A DNA stretch of 64,000 nt from an uncultured Actinomycetes bacterium (GTDB taxonomy: Bacteria; Actinomycetota; Acidimicrobiia; IMCC26256; JACDBD01): contig CAWAGI010000001.1 in assembly GCA_963781615.1 (NCBI GenBank), positions 710,793-774,792 on the forward strand, read 5' to 3'. Made by a program: the position numbers and the translations under genes. Within the stretch, counting starts at the first letter, position 1, and each line of letters starts with the position of its first letter. The notes below the pieces were generated by a model, which saw only the letters and a list, made by a program, of their open reading frames with translations, was not told the origin of the DNA and ran no database searches. Shown piece after piece: positions 1,282-61,803 of the stretch.

Positions 1282-2114
1282 CTAGCCGGGCCGTTCGGGT
1301 AAGGCGCACCACGGCGCGGGGAACCACCCGATCGCCTCTCTCCGGAGGCGACGCCCGCTACCGAGGATGAGCAGGACGCCGGCGACGAGGATCCCGAGCA
1401 ACAACGAGCCGCTGTCGAGACCGTTCCCCGCCGAAGAGACCGCGGCCGTGCCGGTCGCCGCCAACGGCGGCTGACCCCACGGCGGCGCGCGCGTACCACC
1501 TTCCGGCGACGACGAGCTTGCGGCATGCAGCTCTGGTGTCGCGCGCGAATGCATTGCAGTTTTCGCACCGCCACCCGGAGCTGGCGGCGCGGCTCGTCGA
1601 CGCCTCCACCCGGTACAGGCGGATTCGGTGCCGCCCCGACCGCCTGAGCCTGTGACCCATCTGGCGGTGGAGGTGATGCCGGGGCGGTCGACACGTTCAC
1701 TCCGGGCGCGCTCACCGACACGGCCGGGAGCTCCGGCAGCAGCGGGACCGGCGGGACCTTCACGCTGACCGGCTCGGAAGGCAAGAGCGGTTGCAGCGCG
1801 GACAGGTCGACCGGAACCGGTACGTGCAGCATCGACGCGCCGATCGTCATGTCGATCGAGTCGGACGACCCGTCGTCCGGCTGGTCAGTTCCCTGGTGCG
1901 GACGCGGCGCCGCGCTCGCGTCGTCGGCGAGCGCCTCGGCGCGCGGCGTGCGGGCGAGGAGCAGCAACGCCACCACGAACAGACCGAGCAGGAGAAGGAA
2001 TCCGCCAAGCAGGGCGAGCTTGGGGCTGCTCAGTCGCCTTGCACTCTCCATTGCACTCTCTCGCGGGATCGATCCTGCGTACCGGGGTGACTTACCCCCA
2101 CGCGCTTCCGGCAA
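1282..2114 (-). CDS. membrane/cell-wall-associated proline-rich protein with LAxTG-like sorting signal; reading frame broken near 1585-1600
   Basis: ORF 1086..2114 makes sense only in its first ~170 aa: a TM helix (LALLGGFLLLLGLFVVALLLLA) followed by a Pro-rich stretch (VPVPVDLSALQPLLPSEPVSVKVPPVPLLPELP). ORF 1282..1554, in another frame, ends PPLAATG-TAAVSSAGNGLDSGS-LLLGILVAGVLLILG-SGRRLRRE. The likely start is ATG at 2051. Confidence 0.45.
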
Positions 2115-2268
2115 ACAGCATCAAAGCCTCGATGGCCTCGATGGGACCGTTTGTCGCGCTTCGTATCCCCAAAGCGCACGATACACGCGCATCGGCCCTG
2201 ATCCGATTTTTGCGGCGGAACGTTCGATCCGTATTCACCTCCAGATCGGACATTCCGCCCAAATCTCG

Positions 2269-6810: not shown

Positions 6811-9800
6811 TTGACCACTGTTCGCGTTCGCCCGGCCCACGACGGCGTTAGCCTGTGGAGCGAACAGCCCGGGGGGCTGGGGGGATATCGGGTGGGGCCG
6901 AAGCTGACGAGACGACGCCGGCACACGGAGACTGCCTCGCGCACGCCGCGCGATGACGACGCCCGCACCCAGGTCCCGGCGGACGACTCGGGCGAGCTCG
7001 TCATCCGGACCACCAGCGACGGCCGGTACACCTACGTCTCACCCTCCGTGCGGGACGTCCTCGGCTACGAGCCCGAGGAGCTGCTCGCGCAGGCACCGTT
7101 CGAGACCGTCCACCCGGACGACCTCAACCTGGTCGGCTCGGCCGGCGACCGGCTCGCCGCCGGCAGCGCGGCAGGAGTCGGTGCTGCTGCGGAAGCGACA
7201 CGCCGACGGTCACGACGTGTGGCTCGACGCCCGCATCGCCACGGTGCGCGACCCGGTCAGCGGCGAGGTCGTCGAGATCCATGCGACCGCGCGTGACGTC
7301 ACGACGCAGGTCGTCACCGAGCGCGCGCTGCAGCAGCGGGTCGGGGCCGAATCACTCATCGGTGACGTCTCCCGCGAGCTGCTCACGGCGAGCACCGACG
7401 AGATCGACGCCGTGGTGGTGCGCAGCCTGGAGCGGGCGGCCCGATTCGTCGGCGCCGAGCGGGCCAGCCTCGTGCTCGTGAGCCAGGACGGCGAGTCGGC
7501 GGTGAGGACCCACCAGTGGGCGACGGACCCCGAGTTCGAGCCCACCGAGAGCATGACCCGGATCGCATCCCTGCCCTGGCTCCTGGAGCGGTGCCGCGCC
7601 GGGGAGCTCGTGTTCGCGCGGTCGCTCGACGAGTTGCCGGCGGAAGCGGACGTCGAGCGGGCGGCGCTCGAGGGCGTGAGCAAGTCGCTGGCGTGCCTGC
7701 CGATCACGACCGAGGACCAGCTCACCGGCGGCCTCGCGTTCAACTGGATCAGCCGAGAGGCCGAGGACTGCACTCCCGCCCTGTCGACGCTCCGGGTCCT
7801 CGCCGACGTGCTCGTCGTCGCACTCGACCGCAAGCGCGCCGAGCAGGCGCGGGCGAGCTCAGAGGCGCGGTTCCGTTCACTCGTGCACGGCACGTCGGAT
7901 CTCATCGTCGTCACCGACCGCGACGGGATCACGCAGTACGTGAGCCCGTCAGTGCGGCAGTTCGGCTACACGGAGGACGCGGTGCTCGCGAAACCAGCGT
8001 TCGACTTCGTCCATCCGGACGACCTCGACCGTGTCGCCGAGCGGTTCCGAGCCACCATGACGGCCGACGCTCGCCGCGAGCCCATCGAGTTCCGGCTGCG
8101 GGACGGCGCCGGCGGTTGGAAGCTCGTCGAGGCGCTCGGCACCGACCAGCTCGACGACCCCGCGGTGCAGGGCGTCGTGATCAACGTCCGCGACATCACC
8201 GAGCGCAAGGAAGCCGAGAGCGCTCTCCGGGAGAACGAGGAGAGGTTCCGCGCACTCGTGCAGAACACGTCCGACGTGATCACGATGATGGACTCGGACG
8301 GGATGGTCACGTACGCAAGTCCGGCGATCGAGTCGATGTTCGGCGCGGAGCCCGGCCGGGTCATCGGAACCCGTGCGTTCGACTACATCCATCCCGACGA
8401 TCGTGAGCACCTGGCGAACGTGTACGCCGACGGGGTCGAACACCACCCGGGACGCGGCAAGGCCTTCCGGTACCGCATGCAGCATGCCGACGGGTCGTGG
8501 CGTCACGTCGAGACGATCGGCAACAACCTGCTCGGCGACCCCGCCGTGGGAGCGGTCGTGTTGACCACTCGGGACATCACGGAACGCCACACGGCGGCCG
8601 AGGCGTTGCGGCGGAGCGAAGAGCGCTTCCGCGCCCTGGTCCAACACGGGAGCGACATGATCACGGTGCTCGATGCGGACGGACGCGTCCTCTATGCGAG
8701 CCCGTCGGCCGGATCGATTCTCGGCTGGGAGGAGGGCGAGTATCTCGGGCGAACCACCTTTCGGTTGCTGCACCCGGAGGACCGCGAGCACGTCCGGCAG
8801 ACCTTTGCCGAGGCCGTCACCCGGCCCGGCTCCACGCAGACCATCCACTCGCGCATTCGGCACAGGAGCGGTGAGTACAGGCTCCTCGAGTCGATCGCCA
8901 CGAACCTGCTCGACGACCCGGCGGTGCGCGGCCTGGTCGTCAACAGCCGGGACATCACCGAGCGCCGGCAGCTCGAGAACGAGTTGCTCCAGTCACAGAA
9001 GATGGAGGCCGTCGGCCGGCTCGCCGGCGGCATCGCGCACGACTTCAACAACCTGCTGACGGCGATCGCGGGGTACACGGCCCTCCTCCTCGACGAGCAT
9101 CCCGAGGACGCTTCGCTCCGGGCGGATCTCGCCGAGATCGATCAGGCCGCGACGCGGGGCGCCGCGCTCGTCGACCAGCTGCTGTCATTCAGCCGGCGCA
9201 AGATGCTGATGCCGACGGTCCTCGATCTCAACGAGGTCGTCGAGTCCACCCGGGGGTTGCTGAGCCGGGTCATCGGCGCCGACGTGGAGCTCGTCACCCG
9301 CCTGGCGCGCAAGCTCGACGGGGTGCGTGCGGACCGCACGCAGCTCGAGCAGGTGCTCCTCAACCTGGCCGTGAACGCGCGGGACGCGATGCCGGAGGGT
9401 GGCCGCCTCGACATCGAGACCGCGAACGTGATGCTGCGGCGTCGCGACGTCGCCGGCCAGATCGACGCAACCGCGGGACCGCACGTGCTGCTCTTGGTGC
9501 GCGACTCCGGCGTGGGCATGGACCGGGAGACCCAGGCGCAGGTGTTCGAGCCGTTCTTCACCACGAAGGACATCGGCGAGGGCACCGGACTCGGGCTCTC
9601 GACGGCGTACGGGATCGTCACCCAGGCGGGCGGCCACATCTCGGTCGACAGCCGTCCCGGCGCCGGGACCACGTTCCGGGTCTACTTCCCGAAGGACAAG
9701 GACGACCCGCCGGCGTCGGCGCCGGGGGCAGGTGACGCGTCGCCGCGTACGGGGCGGGAGACGATCCTCCTCGTCGAAGACGAGTCGGCGGTGCGCAGCC

Positions 9801-10120
9801 TCGCCCGGGACGTGCTCACCCGCCTCGGGTACGAGGTGCTGGTCGCGGCAGACGGCCACGAGGCGCTGAAGGTGGCCGACCATTGTCGCCGGCGGATCAA
9901 CCTGCTCGTGAGCGACGTCGTCCTGCCGCATCTGCGGGGCGTGGAGGTCGCCGATCGGCTCCGGGCACGCCGCCCCGGTCTTCGGGTCCTCTATATCTCC
10001 GGCTACACCGAGACGGCCATCGTCCACGACGGGCAGCTCGATCCCGGCGTCGACTTCCTCGCCAAGCCGTTCCGTCCCGCCGACCTCGCCAACCGGGTGC
10101 GTGAGGTCCTCGATGCCTAG
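6811..10120 (+). CDS. hybrid sensor histidine kinase: PAS - GAF - 3x PAS - HisKA - HATPase_c - REC; frame break inside first PAS (~7158-7180)
   Basis: ORF 6811..7296 encodes the N-half of PAS1 (ELVIRTTSDGRYTYVSPSVRDVLGYEPEELLAQAPFETVHPDDL). ORF 6953..10120 becomes sensible at ESVLLRKRHADGHDVWLDARIATVRD. Further on come the H-box (AGGIAHDFNNLL), the G-boxes (DSGVGM, GTGLGLS) and a REC domain (ILLVEDESAVR...LLVSDVVLP). Confidence 0.85.
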
Positions 10121-11734: not shown

Positions 11735-13430
11735 CTAACGGTCGCGGAGGAACCATCCGCGCGGGTCCCAACGCCGGAGGGCGGCGATCTCGTCGGCGGT
11801 CGGTGGCGGGAGCTCGCCCACCTCGGGGGCGACGGCCAGCTCCCACCCGCATGCGGCGCGGGCGGCGTCGACCCGCTCTGCGAGAGTGCCGTCGCCGGCC
11901 ACGGCGGTGAGCACGAGCTCGTCGCCGCCACGCTTCTCGAGCATGCCGAGGTCGGTGACGAGAGCTGCGTACGGCGCGGCCGGGTGAGGTGACGTACCCG
12001 CACGCGGGTGGGGTGCGCTCGGGCGTGAGAGTCGCGACGACGACCGCCTCCGCAGCGACGCTGGCGACATCGTTGCCCCCACCCGAGCCCACGAGGAACG
12101 GACCATCGGGGACCAGCGTCGAGTTGATGTTGCCGAAACGGTCGACCTGGGCGCCGCCGAGACACGCGACGGTGGTCGTCCCCGGCCCGCCGACGAGCGT
12201 CCCGAGCACCAGCCCGGCGTCACCGAGCATCGTCGAGCGCGGGAAGTTGCGGTGGTTGAGCACGAACGGGTCCGCCGGCGTCGGGTTGTAGCCCCACAGC
12301 CCGATCTCGGCCGTGAGCTGCACGTCGCACCCGGCGTCCCGCGCCTGCGTGACGCCGAGCCACGCCGACAGGTTGGCGACGCCGGCGCCGGCAAGCACCG
12401 CGTTTGCACCAAGCGCACGCACGCGGTCGGCAAGGTGCCGGGCGCCGAAGACGGCGGCCCGCTCCCATCGATTGGCAGGTGCATCCAAGTCGGGCGGGTA
12501 CGCGGCCTCGTCCGTGTGCCAAGAGTCGGGATCGGCCTTCGCCCGCAGCGCCGCGACCCGGTCGCCATCCAGGCGAGCGACGTACTCGCTCTGGTCGTCG
12601 ACCTCGAGGACCCAGTGCCTGATCCAGTCGTCGAAGTCCTCCCGGCGCGACGCGGCGCGTGCCTCGACCCAGAACTCGTAGTCCTCGCCGTACCCGTCGA
12701 CCGGGAGATCGCCCGTGAACAGGCCACCCGGATGCGCGCCCATCTCCGTCTCGCAGATCGCGAGCACCCGGTGCGCGGGGATCCGCACGAGATGCGACCA
12801 TCCACGCAGATCGTCGACCACGCGCTCGACGGTCACGACGGCCCCCCGGCGTGCGGCCAGCGCGCCCCACACACCTTCGAGCATCGGAGGGTGGACGGCG
12901 ACGTTGCCGTCACGGTCGGCGACGGGTGCGTGCAGCAGCGCGACGTCCGGAACGAGCGGCGCGAGGAGACCGACCTCGCCGAACGGCGTGGCAGCTCGGG
13001 CGTAGGCGTCGTTTTCCTCCATCGACGACCCGGCGATCGACCGGGTCACGACGGCGGGAAGGTTGCACGCCGCCGCCTCGAGCCGCTGCGCAAACGCGAG
13101 GAAGGACCAGTGCTCGACCGCAACCTCCCCGCGCTCGTATGCGCCGGCGAAGATCGGGTTGGGCGTGAAGTTCGGGAAGGTGTCGCCCGAGTAGCCGGTG
13201 ACGACCCGCTCGACGAGCCCGCCCCGGAAGAACAGCGTCCCCAGGCTGGAGAGACTCAGCATCACCAGCGTGAAGCGAGGTTCCCTCCCCCACCACTGCC
13301 GCACCACCTCGCGGGCGGCGGCGGTCCAGCGGGTGTGGCCGACGAGGATGTGCAGCGCGTCGCCGGGCCGCACGTGTGCGGCGACCGCATCCTGGAGCGA
13401 CGTGACCTTGTGGTGGCTCGCGGCCGTCAC
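11735..13430 (-). CDS. fused CoA-transferase (glutaconate/3-oxoacid CoA-transferase A+B-like); frame break ~11968-11985
   Basis: ORF 11316..13667 is sensible from GTG 13430 (VTAASHHKVTSLQDAVAAHVRPGD...) to ...GYVTSPG. The C-terminus continues in ORF 11735..12805 as YAALVTDLGMLEKRGGDELVLTAV...RWDPRGWFLRDR. The GTG start overlaps the upstream stop (GTGA). Confidence 0.75.
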
Positions 13431-14530: not shown

Positions 14531-14571
14531 AGCCTCCCGAGAAACCTGACACGGATGTTAGTGTTCGTTCG

Positions 14572-15793
14572 ATGGACTTCGCGTACTCGCCCGAGGACAT
14601 CGCGTTCCGCGACGAGCTTCGAAGTTGGCTCGAGGAGAACCTGCCGAAGTTCCTCGCCGACTGGGGTGGCGACGACGATTCGGGTGGCGGTCGCGCCGGC
14701 GGCATGCAGTCGAGCGTCTCGCGCAGCCAGGAGCGCCGCAAGGACTGGCAACGCCGGCTCAACGAGGGTCGCTGGGCGGCGATCAACTGGCCGAAGGACT
14801 GGGGCGGTCGCGAGGCGACGCCGGTCCAGAACGTGATCCACGCCGAGGAGAACGCACGCGTGCCGCGCGCCCGGTATCTACAACGCCAACGGCATCTGGC
14901 AGATCGGCCCGATGATCATCAAGTGGGGCACCGACGAGCAGAAGCAACGGTGGCTGCCCGGCATCCTCGACGCCTCGGAGCACTGGTGCCAGGGGTTCAG
15001 CGAGCCCGAGGCCGGCTCCGACCTCGCCAACCTTCGCACCACGGCCGTCCGCGACGGAGACGAGTACGTCGTCAACGGCCAGAAGATCTGGATCTCGACC
15101 GCGCACCTCGCCGACTGGGGTCTGTTCCTGTTGCGAACCGATCCCGAGGCGATCGAGCGCGGCGCCAAGCACGAGGGCATCACCGCGTTCATCGTCAACA
15201 TGCACACGCCCGGCATCGAGTGCCGGCCGATCCGCGACATCGCCGGCGACGAGCTCTTCAACGAGGTCTGGTTCACAGATGCGCGAGTCCCACTCGACTG
15301 CCGACTCGGCGAGGAGGGGCAGGGCTGGCAGGTCGCGATGGGGACGCTCGGGCACGAACGCGTCGGCACCGCCGGCCTGGCGATCACGATGGCCGCGGAT
15401 CTCCGCTCGATGATCTCCGCCGCCAAGGCGACCAACCCGGACGCGCTGCGCGATCCCGAGATCCGGGAGCGGATCGCCCGGGCGTTCACGGACATCGAGT
15501 ACACGAAGCTCCTCAACTACCGAGCGCTGACGAAGATCATCAAGGGCGAGAAGAACTGGCCCGAGGTCCCACTGGCCAAGCTGCAGTGGAGCTACCTCGC
15601 CCAGACGCTCGCCGAGCTGGCCGTCGACCTGCTCGGCCCGGCCGGGCTCCTCGCCAAGGGCGGGCCCGACGCCGTCGACGGCGGCACGTGGACGCGCCTC
15701 TACTCCTTCCAGCGCTACACGACGATCGGCGCCGGCGCCACCGAGGTGCAGAAGAACATCATCGCCGACCGCGCCCTCCTCCCCCGCAAGTAG
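14572..15793 (+). CDS. acyl-CoA dehydrogenase family protein; frame break ~14855-14875
   Basis: The N-terminal part of ORF 14572..16707 is sensible up to ...ATPVQNVIHAEENARV. The protein continues in ORF 14912..15793, whose frame upstream already reads APGIYNANGIWQIGPMIIKWGTDEQKQRWLP...WCQGFSEPEAGSDLANL. Confidence 0.8.
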
Positions 15794-15810: not shown

Positions 15811-16707
15811 GTGAAGCTCGGCATCGTCACACCCGCCGTCACGCGCCTTCCTCGGGCGCACGCGACCTGGGAGGAGACGGCGGGCATCGACGAGATCGCC
15901 CGCGTCGCCGTCGAGGCCGAGCGGCTCGGCTTCCACCACCTCACGTGCAGCGAGCACGTCGCGCTCCCGGCCGAGGTGGCCGACACACGAGGCGCCACCT
16001 ACTGGGACCCGCTGGCGACGTTCGGCTACATCTCGGCCCGCACCACCACCATCCGGCTCGCCACGCACGTGCTCGTCCTCGGCTACCACCACCCGCTGGC
16101 GATCGCCAAGCGCTACGGCACCCTCGACCGCATCTCAGGCGGACGGCTCATCCTCGGGGTCGGCGTCGGCTCGCTGCGCGAGGAGTTCGACCTGCTCGGC
16201 GCGGAGTTCGAGGACCGCGGCGCACGTGGCGACGACGCGATCCGCGCCCTACGCGCCTCGCTCTCCCAGATCGTGCCCGCGTACCACGGCGACTACTTCG
16301 CCTACGACGGCTTCGTGGTCGACCCGTGCGCGGTGCAAGCCCGCATGCCGATCTGGGTCGGCGGACGCACCGCACGCTCGCTGCGCCGGGCGGTGGAGCT
16401 CGCCGACGGCTGGGCGCCGTTCGGGCTGGCACGCACCGACCTCACCGAAATGATCGCCCGCGCCCGCGAGAGCGAGCCCTGGGCGGCCCGCGCCCAGATC
16501 GCCGATGCACCGCCGTTCGAGCTCGTGCTCCAGAACGAGCATCCCTTCGACCCCGGCGCCGAGCCGGGCCGGGTCGGCGAGGCGGTGGCCCGGCTGGCCG
16601 ACGCCGGCGCGACGACGCTCAACGTGCGGTTCGTGCACCACTCGCTCGACCACTACCTGGAGCAGATGGCCGCGATGCGGGACCTCGTGCCTCAGAACTC
16701 GACGTAG
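15811..16707 (+). CDS. LLM-class (luciferase-like, probably F420-dependent) oxidoreductase
   Basis: This is the tail of ORF 14572..16707 starting at GTG 15811: VKLGIVTPAV...GFHHLTCSEHVALP...GRLILGVGVGSLREEF...MPIWVGGRT. Confidence 0.85.
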   Translation: MKLGIVTPAVTRLPRAHATWEETAGIDEIARVAVEAERLGFHHLTCSEHVALPAEVADTRGATYWDPLATFGYISARTTTIRLATHVLVLGYHHPLAIAKRYGTLDRISGGRLILGVGVGSLREEFDLLGAEFEDRGARGDDAIRALRASLSQIVPAYHGDYFAYDGFVVDPCAVQARMPIWVGGRTARSLRRAVELADGWAPFGLARTDLTEMIARARESEPWAARAQIADAPPFELVLQNEHPFDPGAEPGRVGEAVARLADAGATTLNVRFVHHSLDHYLEQMAAMRDLVPQNST

Positions 16708-17357
16708 TGGTCGAAGCGCCGTTCGAGCGGATCGGTCGCGGTCCGCAGGGCCGTCCAGTGATGCGCGGGATCAGCCGTCGACACCTCTTCGATCCTCCAG
16801 CCGAGGTTCGTCGTGCAGAACGACACGGCCCGAGCCACCGAACGCAGCTGGTAGTCGTCGATCACCACGATCCCACCGGGCCGTACGAGCCGGCCGAGGT
16901 ACACGAGGTCCACGAACACGCCGTCGAAGCGGTGGTTGCCGTCGACGAAGGCGAGGTCGAACGTGCGGTCCTCGGCGAGGAACCGCGGGAGCACGATCTG
17001 CGACTCTGCGGCGTGGAACTCCACGACATCGCCGATCCCCGATTCCTCCAAAACCTGCAGGCCACAGTCCGCGAACCGTCGCCCCTGGTGCGGATCGATG
17101 GTCACGTGGTGCGCGTCGTCGCCGTTCGCGAGCAAGCCGTCGCAGATGAACAGGGCGGCGATGCCGTATCCGAGCCCGACCTCGATCGTGCGCGAGGCGT
17201 TCTCGCCTTTCACCCACCGGCGCAGCGCTTCGCCCTCTTCTGCAGTCACCGACACCGGGAACACGCGGTGAACGGTGCCGTCCGAGCTCGCCCCAATGCT
17301 GCCGTCTCGCAGGACATGCTCCAGGACGTGGTGGAGGCGGCGCGTCGACCGACCCAC
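16692..17357 (-). CDS. class I SAM-dependent O-methyltransferase (family 3-like)
   Basis: This is the 3' part of ORF 16692..18476: TIEVGLGYGIAALFI...FDLAFVDGNHRFDGVFVDLVYLGRLVRPGGIVVIDD. The start is uncertain; GTG 17357 is the first in-frame start after the ackA stop. Confidence 0.7.
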   Translation of the reverse strand: MGRSTRRLHHVLEHVLRDGSIGASSDGTVHRVFPVSVTAEEGEALRRWVKGENASRTIEVGLGYGIAALFICDGLLANGDDAHHVTIDPHQGRRFADCGLQVLEESGIGDVVEFHAAESQIVLPRFLAEDRTFDLAFVDGNHRFDGVFVDLVYLGRLVRPGGIVVIDDYQLRSVARAVSFCTTNLGWRIEEVSTADPAHHWTALRTATDPLERRFDHYVEF

Positions 17358-17359
17358 GT

Positions 17360-18476
17360 CTACCCAGCTACCAGCGCGCGGGTGTGGCGGGCGATCACGA
17401 GGTCCTCGTCGGTCCGCACGACCCGGACCACGCACGAGGCGCCGGGGGCGCTGATCACGTCGGCGTGCGCGGCGTTGGCCGACTCGTCGAGCTCGACGCC
17501 GAGGTGCTCGAGGCCACGGCACGTCTCGGCCCGGACGAACGACGCCTTCTCGCCGATGCCGCCGGTGAACACGAGGGTGTCGAGGCCGCCGAGCACGGCG
17601 GCGAGCGCTCCGACGTGCACGCGCGCGGAGTAGCAGAACGCAGTCGACGGCCAACGCCGCGCGCTGATTCCGCTCACGGTCCTCGATGAGTCGCTGCATG
17701 TCCGACGTGCCACCTGAGAGCGCAGCGAGGCCCGCCTCCCGGTCGACGAGCCGCTCGAGGCGGTCGGCGTCGTAGCCCTGCTCGCGCAACAGGTACACGG
17801 GAACGCCGGGGTCGAGGTCGCCGCTGCGGGTGCTCATGACCAGGCCACCGGCGGGCGTGAACCCCATCGTCGTGTCGACCGACTGCCCATCGCGCACCGC
17901 GACCATGCTGGCGCCGTTGCCGAGATGGGCGATGACCGCTCGGCCGAGCTCCGCCGCGCCCACCTTGCCGACGACGTACTCGTACGAGATGCCGTGGAAG
18001 CCGTATCGCCGCACGCCCGCGTCCCAAAGGGAGTCCGGCAGCGGGAGGCGTTGCGCGACCAACGGCATGCGGTGGTGGAACGCGGTGTCGAAGCAGGCCA
18101 CCTGCGGGATGTCCCACCGGGCACCGACCGCCTCGATGCCCGAGATCGCGGCAGGCATGTGCAACGGAGCGAAGGGGATGATCTCGCGGAGCTCGGTGAG
18201 CACGCCTTCGTCGACGAGCGCGGGCTCCGAGAGGCGTGGACCGCCGTGCACGACGCGGTGACCGGCGGCGCCCGGTGCCGGCAGGCCCTCGTCGTCGAAC
18301 GAAGCGAGAGCGGCGTCGAGCGCACCGCGATAGTCGCCGGACTCGATGGGTTGCTCGGCTCGGCCCAACGCGCGCTCCCCCGCGCCGTCGACCCCGAAGA
18401 GGGAGGTCTTCAGCGACGACGATCCGCTGTTCACAGACAGGACGACGCGCGGATCGCCCGCGCTCACGGGCTCCAA
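17360..18476 (-). CDS. ackA: acetate kinase; frame break ~17636-17650
   Basis: The N-terminal part reads [12 protein letters not shown]...[10 protein letters not shown]...[12 protein letters not shown]...RAALAVD in the frame of ORF 16692..18476. The C-terminus is in ORF 17360..17713: [33 protein letters not shown]. Confidence 0.8.
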
Positions 18477-23386: not shown

Positions 23387-23912
23387 CTAGGTCGCCGCTT
23401 CCTCCCGCGGCGGCCGCCAGAACACCGCCAGCAACGTCGAGCGCGCCACCCAGCCCGGCGACGGCGGCGATCACGAGCCCGGACAATCCGTCCACCCAGC
23501 CGAAGGCGAGCACGTCGTCGATCGACCACTCCCCCGGCCCGAGCGCGCCCAGGGCCAGCCCGACGACAGCGAGCGTCATCACGTACTCCCACCCCTCGGT
23601 GGGCCTGCTGAACACGAAGAACCCCGCGCGGCGATGGTTCGTGATCCAGGCCACGACGGCCACGCCGGCGACCGACCCCGCGGCCAGCGGAGTGAGGAAC
23701 CCGGCAACGAGCAGCGCGCCACCGGCCAGTTCGGTGACGGTCACGAGCCACGCGTGGACCGGTCCCGGCCGGAGGCCCAAGCTCGCGAACCAGTTCGCCA
23801 CGCCCGGCCCCTGGAGGTTGCGCCGCAGGTGGTTCCAGCCGTGAGCGAACATGACGACCCCGGCGACGACGCGCAGGCCGAGCAGTGCCAGGTTCAGGGC
23901 GTTCGCGTCCAT
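23387..23912 (-). CDS. DoxX-family membrane protein; probable frame break ~23428-23450
   Basis: The N-terminal part is clearly DoxX-like (MDANALNLALLGLRVVAGVVMFAHGWNHL...). The alternative frame gives a typical ending (STLLAVFWRPPREEAAT) with TAG at 23387-23389, 14 nt from the convergent gene's stop. The listed 335-aa ORF instead reads on antisense through gene 22923..23372. Confidence 0.6.
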
Positions 23913-32921: not shown

Positions 32922-33156
32922 CTACGCCGACTTCCGCCGCTGGCGGATGAGCCGTCGCCGCTCGCGCTCGGTGCGGCCGCCCCACACACCGTGCTTCTCG
33001 CGCACCGTCGAGCGCGTACTCCAGGCACGGCTCCCGCACGGGGCATTCCGCGCAGATCTCCTTCGCCTCGACCGCCTCGTCCTCGTCGGAAACGGGATAG
33101 AAGGTCGCAGGATCGACACCGCGGCAGCGGGCCTGTTGACGCCAGGCCAGATTCAT
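32922..33156 (-). CDS. WhiB-family transcriptional regulator; frame break ~32997-33012
   Basis: MNLAWRQQARCRGVDPATFYPV...AKEICAECPVREPCLEYAL lies in the frame of ORF 31711..33291. REKHGVWGGRTERERRRLIRQRRKSA continues in ORF 32922..33119. An alternative start is ATG 33219. Confidence 0.75.
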
Positions 33157-35530: not shown

Positions 35531-35537
35531 CTCGCTC

Positions 35538-36548: not shown

Positions 36549-36564
36549 GGGCGATCTCCAGCGC

Positions 36565-36662: not shown

Positions 36663-36732
36663 GGCCAGGCTACTGCGCCACGATCCCAGCGCTACTCATC
36701 CTCCCTGTGCGAGCGCGACAATGGTGAGCGGT

Positions 36733-44282: not shown

Positions 44283-45660
44283 GTGACTACAGATGCAGCA
44301 AAAGAGCCTTCACCCGTCCCGATGCGCCGGCGCCTGGCGGCCATCGTGGCGCTGGTGACGTCGGTAGTTCTCGCCCTCTACGTCCTCGCGGTGCTCTTCG
44401 GGCACGGCGCGGATCTGTTGTTCGGACTCATCGGCGTGAGCGTCGCGCTCGCGGGCGGGTGGTGGTTGGTCACAGAGAGGATGCCGCGGCGTCTCTTCGG
44501 GATCGTCAGCGTTGTCGTCGGCCTGGTCGCGCTCGGCGTGATCATCGCGGCGAACGCTCGACGGTGCGGATCGCATCGCCATTCGAATCGTGATCCTGGT
44601 CGCGCTCATGGCCGTGACGCTTGCCTGCGCTCGCGGTGCGATGGTGCAGGACCTCGATCGGCTCGACGTCCGCGTCCGCGCTGGTGGGCGACCGCGCCAC
44701 GCGGTGTTGCTGTGCAACCCGAAGTCGGGCGGCGGCAAGGTCAAGAAGTTCGGCCTGGTCGAACTGGCGCACGAGCTCGGCGTGGAGGCGGTGATGCTCG
44801 AACCCGGTCGCGACCTCGAACAGCTGGCACGCGACGCCATCGCGCGCGGTGCGGACTGCCTGGGCATGGCCGGCGGTGACGGTTCGCAAGCGCTGGTGGC
44901 GTCGATCGCTATCGAGCACGGATTGCCCTTCGTTTGCGTCAGCGCAGGTACACGCAACCACTTCGCTCTCGACCTCGGACTCGACCGCGACGATCCTCGC
45001 GAGTCGATGTTCGCCTTCCGTGATGCGGTCGAACGCCGTGTCGACTACACGACCGTCAACGACCGTCTCTTCGTCAACAACGTGTCCCTTGGCGTGTACG
45101 CGGAGATCGTGCAGCAAGAGTCGTACCGCGACGCCAAGCGCGAGACGACGAAGGCGCTGCTTCCCGAGATGTTGAACCGCCACTCCGAACCGTTCGATCT
45201 GCAGTTCACGACAAGAGACGGCGAAGGCGTCGACGGCGCCATCATCGTCATGGTCTCGAACAACCCGTATGTGATCGGCGTGTCGGCCGACAACGCCGAA
45301 CGCCGCCGCCTCGATTCGGGCGAGCTCGGTGTCTTCGCGGTGACCACGAGGACCGGCAGCGAGGCGGCGCGGCTCTTCGCCGCCGCCGCGATCGGGGGAC
45401 GAAAGCGCAGCACATTCTGGAAGGAGTTCACCGCGACCAGCTTCAAGGTGCGCTCACGATCCGGCACGGCCTTCGCAGGCGTCGACGGCGAAGCGCTGCA
45501 GATGCCGACGCCGCTCCAGTTCCACATCCACGCCCGCGGCCTCACGCTGCTCGTTCCCGCCGGGAACCTCGAGGCCGCCGAACGCCGACGCGCCCGCGAC
45601 GTCAGCCCCGGCGACCTCCTCGCCGTCGCTGCCGGCCACGAGCCGAAGCGTCGCATTTGA
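44283..45660 (+). CDS. membrane-anchored diacylglycerol/lipid kinase (DAGK_cat, YegS/LCB5-like); frame break ~44545-44560
   Basis: The TM N-terminus is in ORF 44283..44879 (…LAAIVALVTSVVLALYVLAVLFG…GIVSVVVGLVALGVIIAA). The kinase domain is in ORF 44590..45660 (AVLLCNPKSGGGK...GMAGGDGSQALV...VSAGTRNHFALDLG). Confidence 0.8.
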
Positions 45661-46564: not shown

Positions 46565-47956
46565 GTGAACGCAGAGCCAACGACCGTCGGTCTGGGCCGC
46601 ATGCTCTTTCCGCTTGCGTTGGCGCAGTTCATCTGCAGCTTTGCGGGCTCGAACATGAACGTGATGATCAATGACATCAGCAAGGATCTCGACACGAGCG
46701 TCCAAGGCGTCCAGGTGGCGATCACGCTCTTCTTGCTCGTCATGGCGGCGCTGATGATTCCGGGCGGGAAGCTGACCGACCGATGGGGCCGAATCCGGTG
46801 CTTCAGGCTCGGGCTGATGATCTACTGCATCGGCGCGTTGATGAGCGCGGTATCTCCCGGGCTCGGCGTGCTCATTCTCGGCAACTCGATCTTCGAGGGT
46901 GTGGGTACGGCGCTTCTCATTCCGCCCGTCTACATCCTCACGACACTGCTGTTCACCGATGTGCCGTCGCGTGCCCGCGCCTTCGGTATCATCAGCGCCG
47001 CTGGCGGCATCGGCGCCGCCTCCGGCCCACTGATCGGTGGGCTCATCACGACGGCGATCAGCTGGCGCGCAGCGTTCGTCTTCCAGGCACTCGTGGTCGT
47101 GGCGATCCTGCTCCTCGCGCGCCGCATCCAGGATCCCGTACCCGCCGACCCCACGCGGCCCTTCGACCTGTCGGGTGCGGTGCTGCAGGCGGTCGGGCTC
47201 GTGCTGCTCGTTACTGGCATTCTCGCCGCCGACAACAGCGCGGTGGCCGTGGTCGTGCTGATCGCCGCGGGAACGCTGTTCATGGTCGGCTTCTTCGTCC
47301 ATGTGCGCCGGCTGGAGCGGGCCGATAAGGAACCACTGCTGTCGACCGCGCTATTCCGCAACCGCACGTCGAACCTTGGGCTCGTCACCCAGAACGTGCA
47401 GTGGCTCATGATCATGGGGACTTCGTTCGTCGTGTCGGCATTCCTTCAGGTCGTGCGTGGCTACAACGCCATCGAAACCGGCGTCATTTTCACTGCGATG
47501 ACCGTCGGCCTCCTGGGGTCGTCGCTTGCCGCGGGCCGGCTCGTGAAGCGGCACGCGCAGAAGACCTTGATCCTCACTGGATTCGCCGTGACGATCGTTG
47601 GCATCCCGCTGCTGCTGGCGATGGTACGAGGCTCACCCAGCGCGTGGGCCTTCGCGCCGGGGCTCTTCTTCATCGGTCTCGGCGCCGGGACGATGCTGAC
47701 GCCGTCGGTCAATGTCGTGCAGTCCGCGTTCCCCGAGGAACAACAAGGCGAGATCTCCGGCCTCTCGCGCAGCGTGTCGAACCTCGGCTCGTCGCTCGGC
47801 ACCGCAATTGCCGGCACCATCCTCGTCGGCGGCCTCACCTCACCCGACCACGCCTACGGCGCGGCCATGATCGCCCTTGGAGCGCTCGGCCTGATCGGCC
47901 TCGGCGCAGCGCTGTTCCTTCCCACCGAGAAGACCCGCGCCCCAATCGCCGAATAG
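46565..47956 (+). CDS. MFS transporter (DHA2/EmrB-like)
   Basis: 463-aa intact multi-TM ORF with motif A-like GKLTDRWGRIR. Confidence 0.9.
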   Translation: MNAEPTTVGLGRMLFPLALAQFICSFAGSNMNVMINDISKDLDTSVQGVQVAITLFLLVMAALMIPGGKLTDRWGRIRCFRLGLMIYCIGALMSAVSPGLGVLILGNSIFEGVGTALLIPPVYILTTLLFTDVPSRARAFGIISAAGGIGAASGPLIGGLITTAISWRAAFVFQALVVVAILLLARRIQDPVPADPTRPFDLSGAVLQAVGLVLLVTGILAADNSAVAVVVLIAAGTLFMVGFFVHVRRLERADKEPLLSTALFRNRTSNLGLVTQNVQWLMIMGTSFVVSAFLQVVRGYNAIETGVIFTAMTVGLLGSSLAAGRLVKRHAQKTLILTGFAVTIVGIPLLLAMVRGSPSAWAFAPGLFFIGLGAGTMLTPSVNVVQSAFPEEQQGEISGLSRSVSNLGSSLGTAIAGTILVGGLTSPDHAYGAAMIALGALGLIGLGAALFLPTEKTRAPIAE

Positions 47957-47973: not shown

Positions 47974-49783
47974 ATGCGTATCGAGGACTACGGCTTCATC
48001 GGTGACACACACACCGGCGCCCTGGTGGGTCGTGACGGGACGGTGGACTGGCTCTGCCTACCGCGCTTCGACTCGGCGTCGTGTTTTGCCGCCCTGGTGG
48101 GAGAGAAGCGGCACGGGTGCTGGCGCCTGGCGCCGGCGGGCGATTTCCGGACGAGCTCTCGTCGCTATCGGCCGGGGACGCTCGTCCTCGAGACAGATTT
48201 CGAGACGGCGGACGGCGCGGTCCGGGTCATCGATTTCATGCCCGCGGCGCGCCGGTGGTCCGCCGCGGCTGATGCGGATCGTGGAGGGCCTGCGTGGGCG
48301 GGTTTCGATGCAGATGGAGCTGTTGCTGCGGCCGGACTACGCCTCGATCACGCCGTGGGTGGAGCCGGTGCCCGACGGGACGATCGCCACCGCCGGGCCC
48401 GACGCGTTCCGGTTGAGCACGCCGCTGGCGCTGGAGATCGAAGAGGGAACGGTGAGTACCGACTTCGTCGTCACCGAGGGCGCCCGGGAGCGGTTCACGC
48501 TCACTTGGCACGCCTCGTTCGAGGAGTCGCCGCCGGTCGAGGACGCCGACTCGGCGTTGGGTCGGACGGAGGCTTGGTGGCAGTCGTGGAGCGGTCGTTG
48601 CAGGTACCAGGGGCCGTATCGGGACGAGGTGCTGGTTTCGCTGATGGCGCTGAAGGCCATGACGTCCGAGACGACCGGCGCCATCATTGCGGCGCCGACC
48701 ACCTCCTTGCCGGAGGACATCGGCGGGGTGCGCAATTGGGACTATCGCTTCTGCTGGCTGCGCGACTCGGTGCTCGCGCTCGAGGCGATGCTCGTCGGCG
48801 GCTTCACGGACGAGGCGCTCGGCTTCCGCGACTTCCTGCGCGGGCCGGCACTGGTGACCCGGCCAAGGGCCAGATCATGTACGGGATCGGCGGCGAACGG
48901 CGTCTCACAGAGTTCGAGCTCGACGATCTCCCCGGCTACGAGGGCTCCAAGCCGGTGCGGGTCGGCAACGCGGCATCCGAGCAGTTCCAGCTCGATGTCT
49001 ACGGCGAGGTGATCGGCGTGGTGCATCTGGGCACCGAGTCGCCTTGGCGCTGATCGAGAAGCGGATCTGGCCTCGCTGGCGCACGGTGATCGAATTCGTC
49101 GAGTCGATCTGGCGCGAGCCTGACGACGGGATCTGGGAGTCGCGCGGGCCGCGCCGCCACTACACCTACTCAAAAGTGATGGCCTGGGTGGTGTTCGACC
49201 GTGGCGTGCGACTCGTCGAACGCTTCGGACTCGACGCGCCCTTGGAGCGCTGGAAGCAGGTCCGCGACGAGATCCACCGCGAGGTCTGCGAGCGAGGATA
49301 CGACCCCGAGCGGCACACATTCACCCAGTACTACGGATCCGAGGAGCTCGATGCGAGCGTGCTCAACATCCCGATCGTCGGGTTCCTGCCGGGCACCGAC
49401 GAACGCGTCACGGGAACGATCGACGCCGTCTGGCGCGAGCTGGGTCGCGACGGCTTCGTCTCGCGGTACTCGACCGCGCGAGACCGACGACGGACTGGCC
49501 GGTGACGAGAGCACAGTTCCTGGCCTGCTCGTTCTGGCTGGTCAGCGCATTGGCGCTCAACGGCCGCGTCGACGACGCCCGCGCGCCTGTTCGAGCGACT
49601 CCTCGGTCTCACCAACGACCTCGGCCTGCTGGCCGAGGAGTACGACGTCGAGCGCCGGCGGCAGGTCGGCAACTTCCCCCAGGCGTTCAGCCATCTCACC
49701 CTGATCCGCGCGCGGCGGTCGCCATCGATGCGGCGGAGACCAAACCGGCCGGGACGGCCGGACCGACGGAGGTGACTCGATGA
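47974..49783 (+). pseudogene. glycoside hydrolase family 15 (glucoamylase/trehalase-like), at least 6-7 frame changes
   Basis: A recognisable GH15 sequence is spread over ORFs 47401..49053, 48002..49012, 49044..49505, 49201..49704 and 49502..49783 plus one unlisted frame. The pieces run MRIEDYGFIGDTHTGALVGRDGTVDWLCLPRFDS... ...RNWDYRFCWLRDS... ...QIMYGIGGER...PVRVGNAASEQFQLDVYGE... ...DDGLAGDE / AQFLACSFWLV / LGLLAEEYD...GNFPQAFSHLTLIRA. Confidence 0.8.
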
Positions 49784-49839
49784 AGACGGCGATCGTCGGA
49801 GGCGTCGCAGCGGTGCCTCGACTGCGGCACGCCTCAGGC

Positions 49840-50074
49840 ATCTCGACGAGACAGCGGAGATCGCGCGCAGCGGGCGGCTCGAAGATGAGCGAATGGTGTT
49901 CGAGAAGATGCTCACGTACGCCAACCACGTCGGGCTGTTCGCCGAAGAGATCGGCCTCGCCGGCGAGCAGCTCGGGAACTTCCCCAAGCCTGCACGCACC
50001 TCGCACTCAGCAACGCCGCCATCAACCTCGACTACCAGCTCGACCACGGCGCCGGACGAGTCGACGTGACCTAA
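49840..50074 (+). pseudogene. 3' fragment of a second, diverged GH15 gene
   Basis: The sequence reads ...[37 protein letters not shown]. After a 1-nt shift inside TTCCCCAAG it continues [29 protein letters not shown], with TAA at 50072-50074. There is no N-terminal two-thirds. Confidence 0.6.
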
Positions 50075-51986: not shown

Positions 51987-53139
51987 TCAGAACGGCTGGT
52001 GCACGCTGTCGATGATCTGGCCCAACACCCTTTCGGGCTTGTAGCGGCGGGCGAGCTGATCGCGAGCCCAGCCGATCGGATTGCTGCGTACGAACATGAG
52101 CCGGGCGAGGCGGCGGGAGTCGGTCTGGTTGCGCTCGAATGACGCCGCGGCACCGCTTCTCGTACAACTCGAGGGCGAGCGGGATCGAGGACGCCTCTGC
52201 GCGGGACAGCTCGTCAGCGAGGGCAGAAGCTGCCCGAAGAGCGTTCGACGCGCCGACGCCCGCGGTCGGGAGAAACGCGACGGCGGCGTCGCCGCACAGC
52301 GCGACCCGGCCGTCGAACCAGCGGCGGGACCGAACGTCGCGCATCGGCCACGGGTAGGCACGGTCGAGGTCTTCGATCGCTGCCGCGATCGAGGCGTCCG
52401 TGGAAGCCAGCGGTTGGACGCGGTCGCGCAACAACGCTGCGACCGCGACACGATTGCGTTCGGTAGCGTCGCTCCCGGGCGCGGCAAAGTCAGATGCAGG
52501 GCCGCCGGCGGCGCACATCAGCTGACCTGGCGACGGATACGCACCGAAGAACCAGCCGCGTCCCCAGAACTCGCGCACGACTGCGGGGTCGAACCGTCCG
52601 GCGTCGGCCCACCAGGTCCACAGCACCCACCCGGCGTCGAACCCGGACTGGCAGCCGAAGATTCGGTCGCGGGTCGCGCTGCCGATGCCGTCGCACGCGA
52701 CGACGAGGTCGAAGCGATCATGGCTGCCGTCGTCGAAGATCACTTCGACCCCATCGGCGTCCCGAAGGACATCACTAACCGTCGTGCCACGCCGTACGGG
52801 GACGCCGGCCGCGCGCTCGAGCAGCCCCAAAAGCTCGGCACGGCCGAGCATGACCATCGGGCCGATTCCTTCAGTGAGCACCTTCATGTCCATCGTCTGC
52901 AGCGGCCGACCGGCACCGTCAGCGAGCTCGTAGGTCTCCACGATGCGACCCGCCGCGACGAACTCGTCGTAGGCGCCGATGCCGTGCAACACACAGCTCC
53001 CGAGGGGATACAGGCCGATGGCGTAGCCGTCCTCCGTGTCGGTGGCACGCTCGACCACGACGGTCTCGCGGTCCTGCTGCGCAAGACGGGCGGCGAGCGT
53101 CAGACCCGCAACGCCGGCCCCGACGATCAAGACACGCAC
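51987..53139 (-). CDS. FAD-dependent monooxygenase (UbiH/PheA-type); frame break ~52127-52142
   Basis: MRVLIVGAGVAGLTLAARL...ACDGIGSATR...ALCGDAAVAFLPTAGVGASNAL...LELYEKR lies in ORF 51982..53139. The C-terminus (ERNQTDSRRLARLMFVRSNPIGWARDQLARRY...) is in ORF 51987..52487. Confidence 0.8.
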
Positions 53140-59090: not shown

Positions 59091-59234
59091 CAACGGAACA
59101 CGGGAGGCTATTCGAGCCTGGCCGTCTAGAGTCTGCGCGCAAAGCGGCCATGCCGTGGCGCGATGATGTGGCGTGCGTCCCTTCTGTCCAGGCCGACTCC
59201 TCAGCCGGCCTACAGACGCTCGATCCACACGTCG

Positions 59235-61803
59235 ATGCCGGTAGCACCTGTCATCCACACTCCCGACCAGCGTCTGCGTGTGTTCGTGAGCTCGACGCTC
59301 GCAGAGCTCGCCGACGAACGACGGGCTGTGCGCGAGGCGATCGAGCAACTCCGGTTGACTCCCGTGATGTTCGAGCTCGGCGCGCGACCACATCCCCCTC
59401 GCGAGCTGTACCGGTCGTATCTCGCGCAGAGTCATGTGTTCGTCGGCATCTACTGGCAAAAGTACGGATGGATCGCGCACGGAGAGGACGTGTCCGGTCT
59501 CGAGGACGAATACCGCCTCGCGGGAGAAATTCCGCGATTGCTCTACATCAAGGAGCCCGCCGCGGAACGCGAGGACCGTCTCGGGACGCTCTTCGAGGAT
59601 TTCGCTTCCGACGACCGCGCTTCCTACAAGCGGTTCGCGACCCCCGAGGAACTCGCGGGGTACGTTGCGAACGACCTCGCTCTCTTGCTCACGGAGCGAT
59701 TCGAGAGCTCATCGACTGATCACGACGCCCGTATCGCATCTGACACGCCGGTCCCGGGCACCGACATCATCGGTCGGCAGTCCGAGGTCGAACGCGTCGT
59801 CGAGCAACTCGGCCGCGGTGATCGCCTCGTCACACTGACGGGCATTGGTGGAATCGGCAAGACGAGACTGGCCCTCGAGATCGCCCGCAGGCTCGGGTCT
59901 CCACCCAGCGCGATCTTTGTACCACTCGACACGGTGCAGGAATCTGGCCACGCCCTCCACACGATCGCCGAGCGCCTCGGCGCGCGTCCGCACGGTCGGC
60001 GATCGCCGCGCGATGTCATCGTCGACCACGTGCGCGGCCACGCAACGTGTCTCGTCCTCGACAATCTCGAGCAGATTCCACACGTCGAATCAGCAATCGC
60101 AGAGCTCATCGAAGCCGCACCAGAGCTGCAGATTCTGGCCACGAGCCGGCGCGCACTCCGCATTCGCGCTGAGCACGTAGTTCCGGTTCCACCGCTCCCT
60201 ATTCCGAAGCCGGGGCTCACGAGCGAGTTGCTGGCCGCGGAGCCCGCCGTGCAGCTGTTCCTCGAGCGAGCGGGCGCCATCGCGGCTCGAGTCGACCTCG
60301 ACGCCGACGCCGAGGTGGTCGCGGAGATCTGCCGGCGCGTCGAGGGAATCCCGCTGGCGATCGAGCTCGCCGCCACGCGTACCCGGCTTCTCTCCCCGAT
60401 GGAGCTACTGGAGCGACTCACCGACCGCTTGTCGTTCCTCGCCGTCACGGGCGCGGATTTCCCCGAGCGTCAGCGCACCGTCCGAGCCACGATCGACTGG
60501 AGCTACGAGCTCTTGGGCACGAGTGAACGCATTCTGCTTGCCCGTCTCGGGGTGTTCGCCGGTGGATGGACGGTCGAGGCGGCCGATGCCGTGTGCGGCG
60601 TCGACAGTGACGACGTGCTCGAGGGCCTGGGCCGGCTGCTCGACCAGAGCTTCGTGACGCCAGCCGACGAAACGGGTCGATCGCCACGGTTCCGGATGTT
60701 CGAAACGGTCCGGGGCTACGCCACGGAACGCCTTGCAGAGCTAGGTGAATCGGAGACCATGGCCACGCGTCACCTCGACTACTTTCGCCGGCTCGCGGAA
60801 CGAGCCCAGCCCTCCCTCTGCGGACCGGGGCAGCGCGAGTGGGTGGCACGTCTCAACCCTGAGCGGCCAAACCTCCGACAAGCCACATCGACGGCGCTCG
60901 ACACCGGCCAGCACGCCGTCGTCGTCGAGATCGCGTGGGATGTCATCGTCCTCTACTTCGTGTGCGACGCCGTCGACGAACCAGCCAGCTGGCTTCGGGC
61001 GGTGTCAGGCTCCGAGGTCGAGCTCGACGAGGTGACGACTGCGAAGCTGCGCACGCTGCATGCGCTCACCCGTGTCCACCGTGGCGACTACGCGGGCGTC
61101 CTCGTCGAGCTCGAAGAGCCGTTGCGGGTGTTTCGTCGCGAGCGCATGAACTTCGAAGCGGCAGTCGCCTTGCACCAGCTTGGCTTCGTTCGATACCGAG
61201 TCGAAAACGACGTCAACGACGCAATCGATGCGCTCAGGGAATCATCCGCCCTGTTCGACGGTCTGGGACACGATTGGGGCGTCGCGCTCGCCGAAGCGAT
61301 GCTCGGCAGCATTCTTGCCGCCGAGGGGGATTTGCGCGCGGCGGAGGAGAGTCAGCTCCTCTCGCTTTCGCGCGCTCGCCGCATTGACAACGAACCGCAG
61401 ATCGCCCAGGCGCTCCAGCAGTTGGCGTTTATTCGGCTGCTCGAATCACGAGAGCCTGAGGCCCTGGAGCTCCTCGAAGAATCAGCCGCTCTGCTGCGCA
61501 ACCAGGGGCTCCGCACGGACACGACCTATTGTCTCGACGCCCTCGGCCTGATCGCGCTCGGCGTAGGTGACGTGAGTACCGCCGCCGACGCGGTCACGTT
61601 GGCCGAGGTCGAGCGCGCTCGCCTCGGGGTTTCCGCGTGGCCTTCGCTCGAACCGGCGATCGAGCGCGTCGTCCACGCCGTCCGTCGCCGCATTGGTGAC
61701 GCGGAGTTCGACGAAGCGTCGTCGGTCGGCACAGGATCTCGACCTGTTCGAGGCGATGGACACGACGATCGCTGCGATCCGTTCCGTCGCGGTCGAACGC
61801 TAG
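59235..61803 (+). CDS. STAND NTPase: DUF4062 - NB-ARC/AAA - TPR; frame break ~61713-61734
   Basis: The DUF4062-like N-terminus reads RVFVSSTLAELADERRAVREAIEQLRLTPVMFE...HVFVGIYWQKYGW...EDEYRLAG. Walker A is LTGIGGIGKTRLA and Walker B is CLVLDNLE, followed by a long TPR-like tail. The last 23 aa (AQDLDLFEAMDTTIAAIRSVAVER) and TAG at 61801-61803 are in another frame. Confidence 0.8.

Follow-up and report, generated by a model that had tools for sequence, protein, structure and literature searches.

What can account for a stretch of bacterial DNA in which conserved genes are broken in frame, one after another, with every single break running in the same direction? The window considered here, the whole 64,000-nt stretch that was analysed, comes from a genome designated G000, and its first-pass annotation left the choice between a systematic assembly or polishing error at alternating GC tracts and tracts of this kind being real indel hotspots. 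To judge from the sequence comparisons set out below, the broken genes are almost certainly no biology but the outcome of single-base insertion errors made when long reads of Nanopore type were assembled into a metagenome consensus.

Frame breaks in the window

The broken genes are present in the deposited sequence, and all ten lengths reported for them were reproduced on recomputation: nine genes with a single break measure 3n+1 nt from first codon to final stop, and the gene at 1282-2114 measures 3n+2. That conserved genes are indeed broken is borne out by Pfam families split across the breaks and, independently, by the frame changes placed by a frame-aware gene model (a codon-model Viterbi, hereafter HMM), whose '+1' changes in the window are entered with the genes below.

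7165..7180, + strand: break in a PAS/HisKA/HATPase/receiver hybrid kinase gene (about 6934-10117); window net +1 nt, where the sequences diverge locally; HMM change at 7171
11966, - strand: surplus T (+ strand) in a CoA-transferase gene (11738-13427), splitting the relatives' GGGC-GCGT; HMM change at 11987
14863..14864, + strand: surplus C in an acyl-CoA dehydrogenase gene (14569-15790), within GTGC-GCGCGCC, six relatives compared; HMM change at 14875
17642..17643, - strand: ackA (17363-18461) with a surplus base, read as A on the + strand, where seven relatives have AACGC-GTCGAC; HMM change at 17642
23437, - strand: surplus T in a DoxX-family gene (23390-23912), where four relatives read AGCG-CGAGCGCGCC; HMM change at 23436
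33009..33010, - strand: small WhiB-like gene (32922-33156) with one base too many, a net +1 relative to five relatives, whose intact reading is LEYALTVREKHGVWGG
44540..44570, + strand: frame change in a DAGK_cat lipid-kinase gene (44316-45657), placed by the model only; HMM change (+1) at 44556
52130..52150, - strand: FAD-dependent monooxygenase gene (51990-53133) with a match to FAD_binding_3, the frame changing ahead of its final ~50 residues; HMM change (+1) at 52140
61720..61740, + strand: DUF4062/NB-ARC/TPR STAND gene (59250-61800) in which the final 70 nt may contain a frame change; HMM change (+1) at 61731, weak
1282..2114, - strand: Pro/Ala-rich membrane protein gene in which the GC3 phase steps twice, at about 1480 and 1700, by +1 each
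47980..50071, + strand: GH15-type gene with at least four changes of both signs, at about 48244 (+1), 48840 (-1), 49039/49048 (+2) and 49712; HMM changes at 48268, 48856, 49039, 49712 and 49989

Six of these breaks (PAS kinase, CoA-transferase, acyl-CoA dehydrogenase, ackA, DoxX and whiB-like) could be fixed exactly against up to seven genomes of the same genus, and in the alignments each proved to be one surplus base, with no GC unit missing. The proposal that adding back a GC unit restores family-typical joins thus fails: the relatives read ENARVRAPGIYNANG, YVTSPGRAVRALVT and, in the WhiB-like gene, the sequence given above, and every one of the proposed joins is a residue longer than theirs. 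Nor do the relatives share the split genes, the frame being uninterrupted in them at every site compared. The Pfam matches agree with these placements: the PAS fold of the hybrid kinase is cut at 6811-7296 (the gene is net +1 against both G005 and G012), the N domain of the acyl-CoA dehydrogenase is divided between 14572-14915 (positions 2-74) and 14912-15793 (positions 92-111, with the M and C domains), and the Acetate_kinase profile switches frame after position 302 (58-302, then 303-392). The surplus base of the CoA-transferase is lacking in five relatives.

For the remaining genes the support is of a different kind. DNA comparison of 44-64 kb and of 873-2269 with the relatives gave no alignable match, as neither segment is conserved among members of the genus, and for this reason 1282-2114 and the changes at 44556, 52140 and 61731 have no confirmation from relatives; an orthologue of the lipid-kinase gene was likewise absent from the same-genus genomes compared. 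The change at 44556 separates a transmembrane segment at the N-terminus from the DAGK_cat body, and transmembrane helices run on across the break, while the C-terminal motif of the monooxygenase, which reaches the break as YEKRCRGV, goes on as FERNQTDSRRLARLMF in the other frame. The call in the STAND gene is weak, its second segment being just 70 nt long. As for the membrane protein gene, singled out earlier as the odd one out, its 3n+2 length stands, but the GC3 phase suggests that it probably carries two +1 insertions, in which case it would be no exception. In the GH15 gene a second C-terminal fragment (49842-50071) is also shifted. Its lesions, at least five in 2 kb and of either sign, are denser than the genome average, and this gene could be a true pseudogene.

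Frame changes throughout the genome and the genus

Are these lesions peculiar to the window? The frame-aware model placed 708 frame changes in the 3.1 Mb of G000 (2.27 per 10 kb), spread over 272 of its 308 10-kb bins. The +1 bias noticed in the window holds genome-wide, with 512 '+1' against 196 '+2' changes, whereas a short-read control from the same genus, G005, shows 3 and 15, respectively. Alignment of 465 kb to G005 resolved 84 of the '+1' events: 74 were a net +1 nt in G000, 70 of them clean single-base insertions (G at 30 of these exact sites, C at 17, A at 14 and T at 9), and only four were -2. Essential genes are not spared, secY, rplF and rplM being broken and rpsC having lost its stop codon. 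At the same time, genes typically carry one lesion each, protein identity to relatives is still 97-98%, and the genome, at ~70% GC, has a coding fraction of 91%. The insertions in secY, in rplF and at C7:228442 have no counterpart in further metagenome contigs, of which there are between one and four per site; for secY these are four contigs, all without the extra base and all from other species (87-90% identity). Metagenome scans for an intact acyl-CoA dehydrogenase junction of the same species gave no match, and those for a short-read assembly of the species found none; a search for contigs encoding an intact window protein likewise yielded no record.

The frame-change rate follows assembly type and not lineage. 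G000 consists of 9 contigs totalling 3.12 Mb and has a marker completeness of just 75.75%; other few-contig metagenome-assembled genomes (MAGs) of the genus reach 60-64%, as opposed to 95-96% for MAGs of equal size in 160-370 contigs. Three few-contig MAGs, G001, G003 and G009, the last being a Microflora Danica Nanopore MAG, have 3.0, 6.75 and 5.64 frame changes per 10 kb, with a +1 bias in all three. Together with G000 the range is thus 2.3-6.8, against 0.29 in G005, a MEGAHIT 'SMAG' assembly of which 616 kb were scored, and in the few-contig MAGs error rates broadly track low completeness. One GCGCGTGCGCGCGCC tract, in the acyl-CoA dehydrogenase gene, has taken different indels in G000 and in G001, that of G001 being +2. 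Of the two explanations offered at the outset, the first, systematic error, gains strong support from the genome-wide spread, the broken essential genes and the dependence on assembly type, whereas indel-prone GC tracts fit poorly with lesions that are single bases and with short-read MAGs that are nearly free of them.

How might such errors have arisen? The window lies within a few-contig MAG of a soil Acidimicrobiia species. Error-prone long reads would underlie its consensus, in all likelihood Nanopore reads put together by Flye and given one Medaka round, with no short-read polishing. The platform of G000 is suggested here by its assembly statistics and by its relatives; the MFD-LR catalogue, for comparison, is Nanopore-only and was assembled with Flye --nano-hq and one Medaka round (PMC12313526). 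Residual errors in this consensus number some 2.3 per 10 kb and are overwhelmingly single surplus bases. Each insertion shifts the frame by +1, and therefore every gene hit once has a length of 3n+1. Residual indel errors in the consensus of long-read assemblies and MAGs are a general phenomenon (PMC13543314). The lesions described here resemble them in being single-nucleotide indels in otherwise intact conserved genes, essential ones included, distributed genome-wide, and, just as such errors split ORFs and lower CheckM completeness, high contiguity goes together here with low marker completeness; short-read assemblies of relatives lack the lesions.

Sequence context of the insertions

The link to GC tracts survives in part. 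Context statistics were taken from sites placed exactly by alignment in preference to model-predicted junctions, since the latter are placed only to about +-20 nt and had accordingly given nothing but a diffuse GC-rich enrichment in a first motif scan. Among the 70 exact sites of G000, 43% have CGCG within +-6 nt, compared with 16% of controls (z=6.3), and CGCG is the top 4-mer near them in an unbiased scan; it is again the top 4-mer at the pooled sites of G001, G003 and G009 (31% against 15%, z=4.6). An enrichment above chance is therefore real, but as a general rule the link breaks down, because 57% of the sites lack a CGCG at a distance of up to 6 nt; association with CGCG covers no more than about a third of the errors, and the rest are scattered single-base insertions. 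In the window, five of the six exactly placed lesions interrupt or abut CGCG/GCGCG, as seen in the relatives for four of them and in the window itself for 33009. The ackA junction, listed earlier among those not lying on GCGCG, does in fact lie on a CGCG. The idea that every insertion splits C^GCG, taken from the first three window sites, was abandoned, given that genome-wide no more than 11% of sites, versus 6% of controls, have CGCG within +-3 nt; the insertions sit a few nucleotides off the motif rather than inside it. Homopolymers do not explain them either: just 19 of the 70 inserted bases match a neighbour, and runs of 4 or more are not enriched.

This spectrum runs against the classical Nanopore picture, in which long-read errors are mostly homopolymer deletions, in that about 90% of the changes here are single-base insertions, non-homopolymer, at 70% GC and adjacent to CGCG. 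About a third of the insertions lie within a few bases of alternating CGCG/GCGC stretches and the others are scattered; the preference presumably reflects a hard context for base-calling or polishing.

Could the context instead be chemical? Methylation-motif errors of Nanopore data cluster no more than a few bases from a short palindromic motif, are usually substitutions at it, and have a known cognate methyltransferase. Cytosine methylation of CGCG might similarly distort the pore signal so that the polisher settles on an extra base, a reading that would refine and not replace that of an assembly artefact. In its favour are the concentration of errors near a short palindromic motif, with CGCG top-enriched within +-6 nt in four long-read MAGs of the genus, the offset of a few nucleotides, which is as expected for a k-mer-wide signal effect, and one N6/N4-type methyltransferase (PF01555) encoded in G000 at C3:246548-247240. 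However, that CGCG is the cognate motif of this lone enzyme is conjecture only, a profile search of G000 for a C5 cytosine methyltransferase (PF00145) gave no match, the changes are insertions, more than half of the sites are motif-free, and the same enrichment in four different species would suit an effect of sequence context equally well. We regard methylation as an unlikely refinement.

Could the breaks be real?

Rapid pseudogenisation, with alternating GC tracts as indel hotspots, is a far less probable reading. It can draw on the existence of the breaks in the deposited sequence, on their enrichment near CGCG and on the decay-like GH15 gene, but it would have to accommodate broken secY, rplF and rplM, genes with one lesion and no further decay in a genome that is 91% coding, single-base rather than GC-unit changes, breaks that every few-contig MAG of the genus has and its short-read MAGs lack, and different indels in G000 and G001 at one site. 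Two known systems offer a comparison. Pseudogenes of Mycobacterium leprae have accumulated lesions and stops in number, only about half of its genome is coding, and decay has left essential genes untouched; G000 is similar in that disrupted genes run into the hundreds at a genome size of about 3 Mb, but differs on each of these three points. Simple-sequence contingency loci also tie frame changes to a short repeat-like context, yet there whole repeat units are gained or lost, in long tracts of a few specific genes, whereas here single bases lie beside GC alternations of 2-3 units at ~700 sites, ribosomal protein genes included, and losses of 2 nt are confined to the four of 84 events mentioned above.

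Least tenable are the readings that would keep the frameshifts and have the cell correct them. Programmed +1 ribosomal frameshifting, transcriptional slippage or RNA editing could explain why all single breaks go in the same direction, but the sites have no common slippery motif (homopolymer-like ones number just 19 of 70), are not conserved, as the relatives' uninterrupted frame attests, and are placed randomly in genes in numbers (~700) that are without bacterial precedent, which makes such decoding hardly credible. It is just as difficult to believe that the extra bases are truly in the DNA of the population and of its long-read congeners and that some motif-independent +1 correction, at the level of RNA or ribosome, yields full-length SecY, L6, L13 and hundreds of other proteins.

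Consequences for the use of the genome

Given insertion errors of assembly, what is at issue is data quality and not gene decay, and the significance of the finding lies there rather than in biology. G000 stands for its species in a public taxonomy, and a spurious base would split roughly every fourth or fifth of its genes, so that whatever is derived from it, from gene calls, pseudogene counts and completeness estimates to pangenome analyses and metabolic reconstructions, would be distorted. Other few-contig MAGs of the genus are affected likewise, with 3-7 errors per 10 kb. The MFD-LR catalogue was checked for consensus frameshifts by way of coding densities below 75% and of low-GC, homopolymer-rich archaea (PMC12313526); because such checks target low coding density and homopolymers, an insertion mode that operates at high GC and leaves 91% of the genome coding would probably be missed by them. 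The remedy would be frame-aware annotation, or repolishing with short reads or a newer model, and other findings of 'frameshifted' or 'split' genes from this genome should be discounted.

Frame breaks in the window and their lesions

The gene lengths given in the first-pass annotation, nine of 3n+1 and one of 3n+2, are arithmetically correct, and the genes are confirmed as broken by single Pfam families that span the breaks: in the acyl-CoA dehydrogenase (ACAD) gene (~14569-15790), N-domain positions 2-74 lie in one frame and the following frame holds positions 92-111 together with the M and C domains, the acetate kinase profile is divided between frames (58-302 and 303-392), and the PAS fold of the hybrid kinase is cut. 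A Viterbi gene model with seven states (one for non-coding DNA and six for the reading frames, with codon log-odds trained on the genome under study, G000), which leaves a frame only via a stop codon or a penalised frame change, reproduced the break list of the first-pass annotation with changes at 7171, 11987, 14875, 17642, 23436, 44556, 52140 and 61731, all displacing the downstream frame by +1, and with five more in the GH15 gene; only the small gene at 33000 was missed, being too short for the model. Alignment to congeneric genomes, at most seven per site (80-91% identity), revealed one extra base in the window at each aligned break.

Lesions at aligned breaks (extra base in brackets)
11966: window GAGAGC[T]GCGTAC; relatives GAGGGC-GCGTAC
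14863 (ACAD): window GTG[C]CGCGCGCC; relatives GTG-CGCGCGCC
17642 (ackA): window GAACGC[A]GTCGAC; relatives GAACGC-GTCGAC
23437: window AACG[T]CGAGCGCGCC; relatives AGCG-CGAGCGCGCC
33009 (WhiB-like gene, minus strand): window CACCGT[C]GAGCGCG; relatives CACGGT-GAGGGCG; 5/5 relatives agree
7165-7180: net +1 within a divergent patch

The first-pass annotation had proposed mending such genes by adding back a GC unit, but joins made in this way exceed the relatives' proteins by one residue. The intact readings of the relatives there are ENARVRAPGIYNANG, YVTSPGRAVRALVT and LEYALTVREKHGVWGG, so each event is an insertion of +1 and not a deletion of -2. Two independent long-read MAGs carry damage in the GCGCGTGCGCGCGCC tract of ACAD (14850-14875), but of different kinds, +1 in G000 and +2 in the relative G001 (G001:C27, L006).

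Breaks in variable segments

On comparison to relatives, 873-2269 and most of 36-64 kb show no conservation in the genus. In the DAGK-family gene, transmembrane helices run on past the modelled break; in the FAD monooxygenase, a family-typical C-terminal motif resumes in another frame; the tail of the STAND gene is weak, with only 70 nt left downstream of the modelled break. Two GC3 phase steps of +1 each in the gene of the Pro-rich 'surface protein' (1282-2114) suggest that the sole 3n+2 length may reflect two ordinary insertions. The GH15 gene (47980-50071) changes frame at least five times in 2 kb, with both signs represented, a density far above the genome average, and after it comes another GH15 C-terminal fragment, also truncated (49842-50071). 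The gene may be a genuine pseudogene, or the site of a local error cluster or low-depth patch in a strain-variable island.

The stretch ~36000-64000, of lower GC (64-68%), poorly conserved in the genus and with few confident coding calls, is probably such an island. It holds, besides the GH15 fragments:
46580-47953: MFS transporter
59250-61800: STAND NTPase (DUF4062/NB-ARC/TPR)

Three segments vary among the relatives:
873-2269: G000-specific 1.4-kb segment whose Pro/Ala-rich product has a transmembrane helix at its N terminus; the flanking genes lie ~43 nt apart in G002
16689-17369: ~680 bp between the ACAD neighbour and ackA, where relatives have only ~17 nt, with a minus-strand gene (16783-17360) for a class-I SAM methyltransferase (Methyltransf_24) that has 70-76% identical copies at other loci of relatives' genomes
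35083-36711: 1.6-kb segment in G000 and G001, missing at the syntenic place in G005, G002, G011 and G012

Frame changes across the genome and the genus

The window is C1:710793-774792 of G000, which comprises 3.12 Mb at 70% GC and belongs to a genus of soil Acidimicrobiia, judging by the titles of related records. It has ~40 ACAD paralogues (24-70 in relatives), and its fatty-acid/acyl-CoA oxidation repertoire is unusually large for a 3.1-Mb genome. Two kinds of assembly occur within the genus, many-contig MAGs as against few-contig MAGs of strikingly low completeness. G009 is the Microflora Danica long-read MAG 'MFD05176.bin.2.14' (G009:C6 = CAVTTE010000006.1), from a Nanopore-only catalogue assembled by Flye --meta --nano-hq and one Medaka round (PMC12313526); we infer that G000 is likewise long-read.

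Assemblies and frame changes (Viterbi model, flanks of at least 90 nt; '+1' and '+2', displacement of the downstream frame)
Assembly; contigs; completeness; scanned; events per 10 kb; '+1' vs '+2'
G005 (DASZGY01 'SMAG_U6561', short-read, MEGAHIT k141 contig names); 160; 96%; 616 kb; 0.29; 3 vs 15
G002 (DATFXK01); 370; 95%
G000; 9; 75.75% (markers); 3.12 Mb; 2.27; 512 vs 196
G001; 30; 61%; 140 kb; 3.0; 26 vs 16
G009; 20; 64%; 140 kb; 5.64; 63 vs 16
G003; 10; 60%; 120 kb; 6.75; 64 vs 17

The 708 frame changes of G000 occur at similar rates on all nine contigs and occupy 272 of 308 10-kb bins with mild clustering (variance/mean 1.43). When 465 kb were aligned to G005 (85% identity), covering 107 modelled events, 74 of 84 '+1' events proved to be net +1 nt in G000 and four to be -2, while the 23 '+2' events included seven of +2 nt and three of -1, which validates the model and makes single-base insertion the dominant lesion. 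Net +1 insertions also predominate among the events of G001 (20), G003 (42) and G009 (44) when these are aligned to G000. Frame changes follow assembly type, not lineage, and broadly track low completeness, the most complete of the affected MAGs, G000, being the least affected.

Essential genes are not spared: in the ribosomal protein cluster of contig C7, frame breaks split rplF (218904), secY (221687) and rplM (230981), and the stop codon of rpsC is gone. All four other metagenome contigs whose 12+12-nt flanks match exactly at the secY site are without its extra G; one of them also lacks the rplF insertion and another the insertion at C7:228442; scans of metagenome contigs found no same-species short-read contig.

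Association with CGCG

Since GCGCG-like strings are common in DNA of 70% GC, association with GC tracts was assessed at exact sites, 70 clean single-base insertions against 30,000 control coding positions. CGCG lies within +-6 nt (in the relative's sequence) at 43% of sites and 16% of controls (z=6.3), ranking first among all 136 strand-collapsed 4-mers, and GCGC is raised too; pooled sites of G001, G003 and G009 agree (CGCG 31% vs 15%, GCGC 29% vs 13%; z=4.6 each). The link proposed in the first-pass annotation is thus real, but it accounts for only about a third of events, 57% of insertion sites having no CGCG nearby, and its mechanism holds only in that indels lie partly at CGCG; the lesion is a single base, not a GC unit. 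Insertions fall mostly 0-2 nt beside the motif, seldom inside it. Any of the four bases may be inserted (G30, C17, A14, T9), and only 19 of 70 match a neighbour, so these are not classical homopolymer errors. In G000 the low-coordinate side of the palindromic motif is preferred (19 of the 70 sites at +2..+4, six at -2..-4), a sign that the consensus or polishing step is asymmetric.

Origin and significance of the breaks

What, then, produced the breaks? Comparative and statistical rather than read-level evidence best supports consensus errors left in a metagenome assembled from long reads alone at modest depth, the first of two origins initially proposed: essential genes are broken, relatives are intact and rates depend on assembly type. 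Insertions of one base dominate the error profile, and alternating CG is a context that proves difficult. That methylated CGCG disturbs base-calling is a possible but unsupported refinement; a C5 methyltransferase was not found in G000, and sequence context by itself would explain the enrichment, common to four species, equally well. The sole N6/N4-type DNA methyltransferase detected in G000 (C3:246548-247240) is at most a candidate for such methylation. Real pseudogenisation, programmed recoding and real (GC)n hotspots, the last being the other origin initially proposed, are each contradicted by the broken essential genes, by single lesions in otherwise strongly conserved genes, by relatives intact at every checked site and by rates that vary with assembly type.

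According to reviews, low-depth long-read metagenomes without short-read correction yield such frameshifts (PMC13543314). Screening of the Microflora Danica long-read catalogue (MFD-LR) addressed only coding density <75% and homopolymer-rich low-GC genomes (PMC12313526), and at the 91% coding fraction of G000 these checks would probably miss such errors. The frame breaks are no biological feature; they are chiefly a warning on G000 and its long-read congeners.
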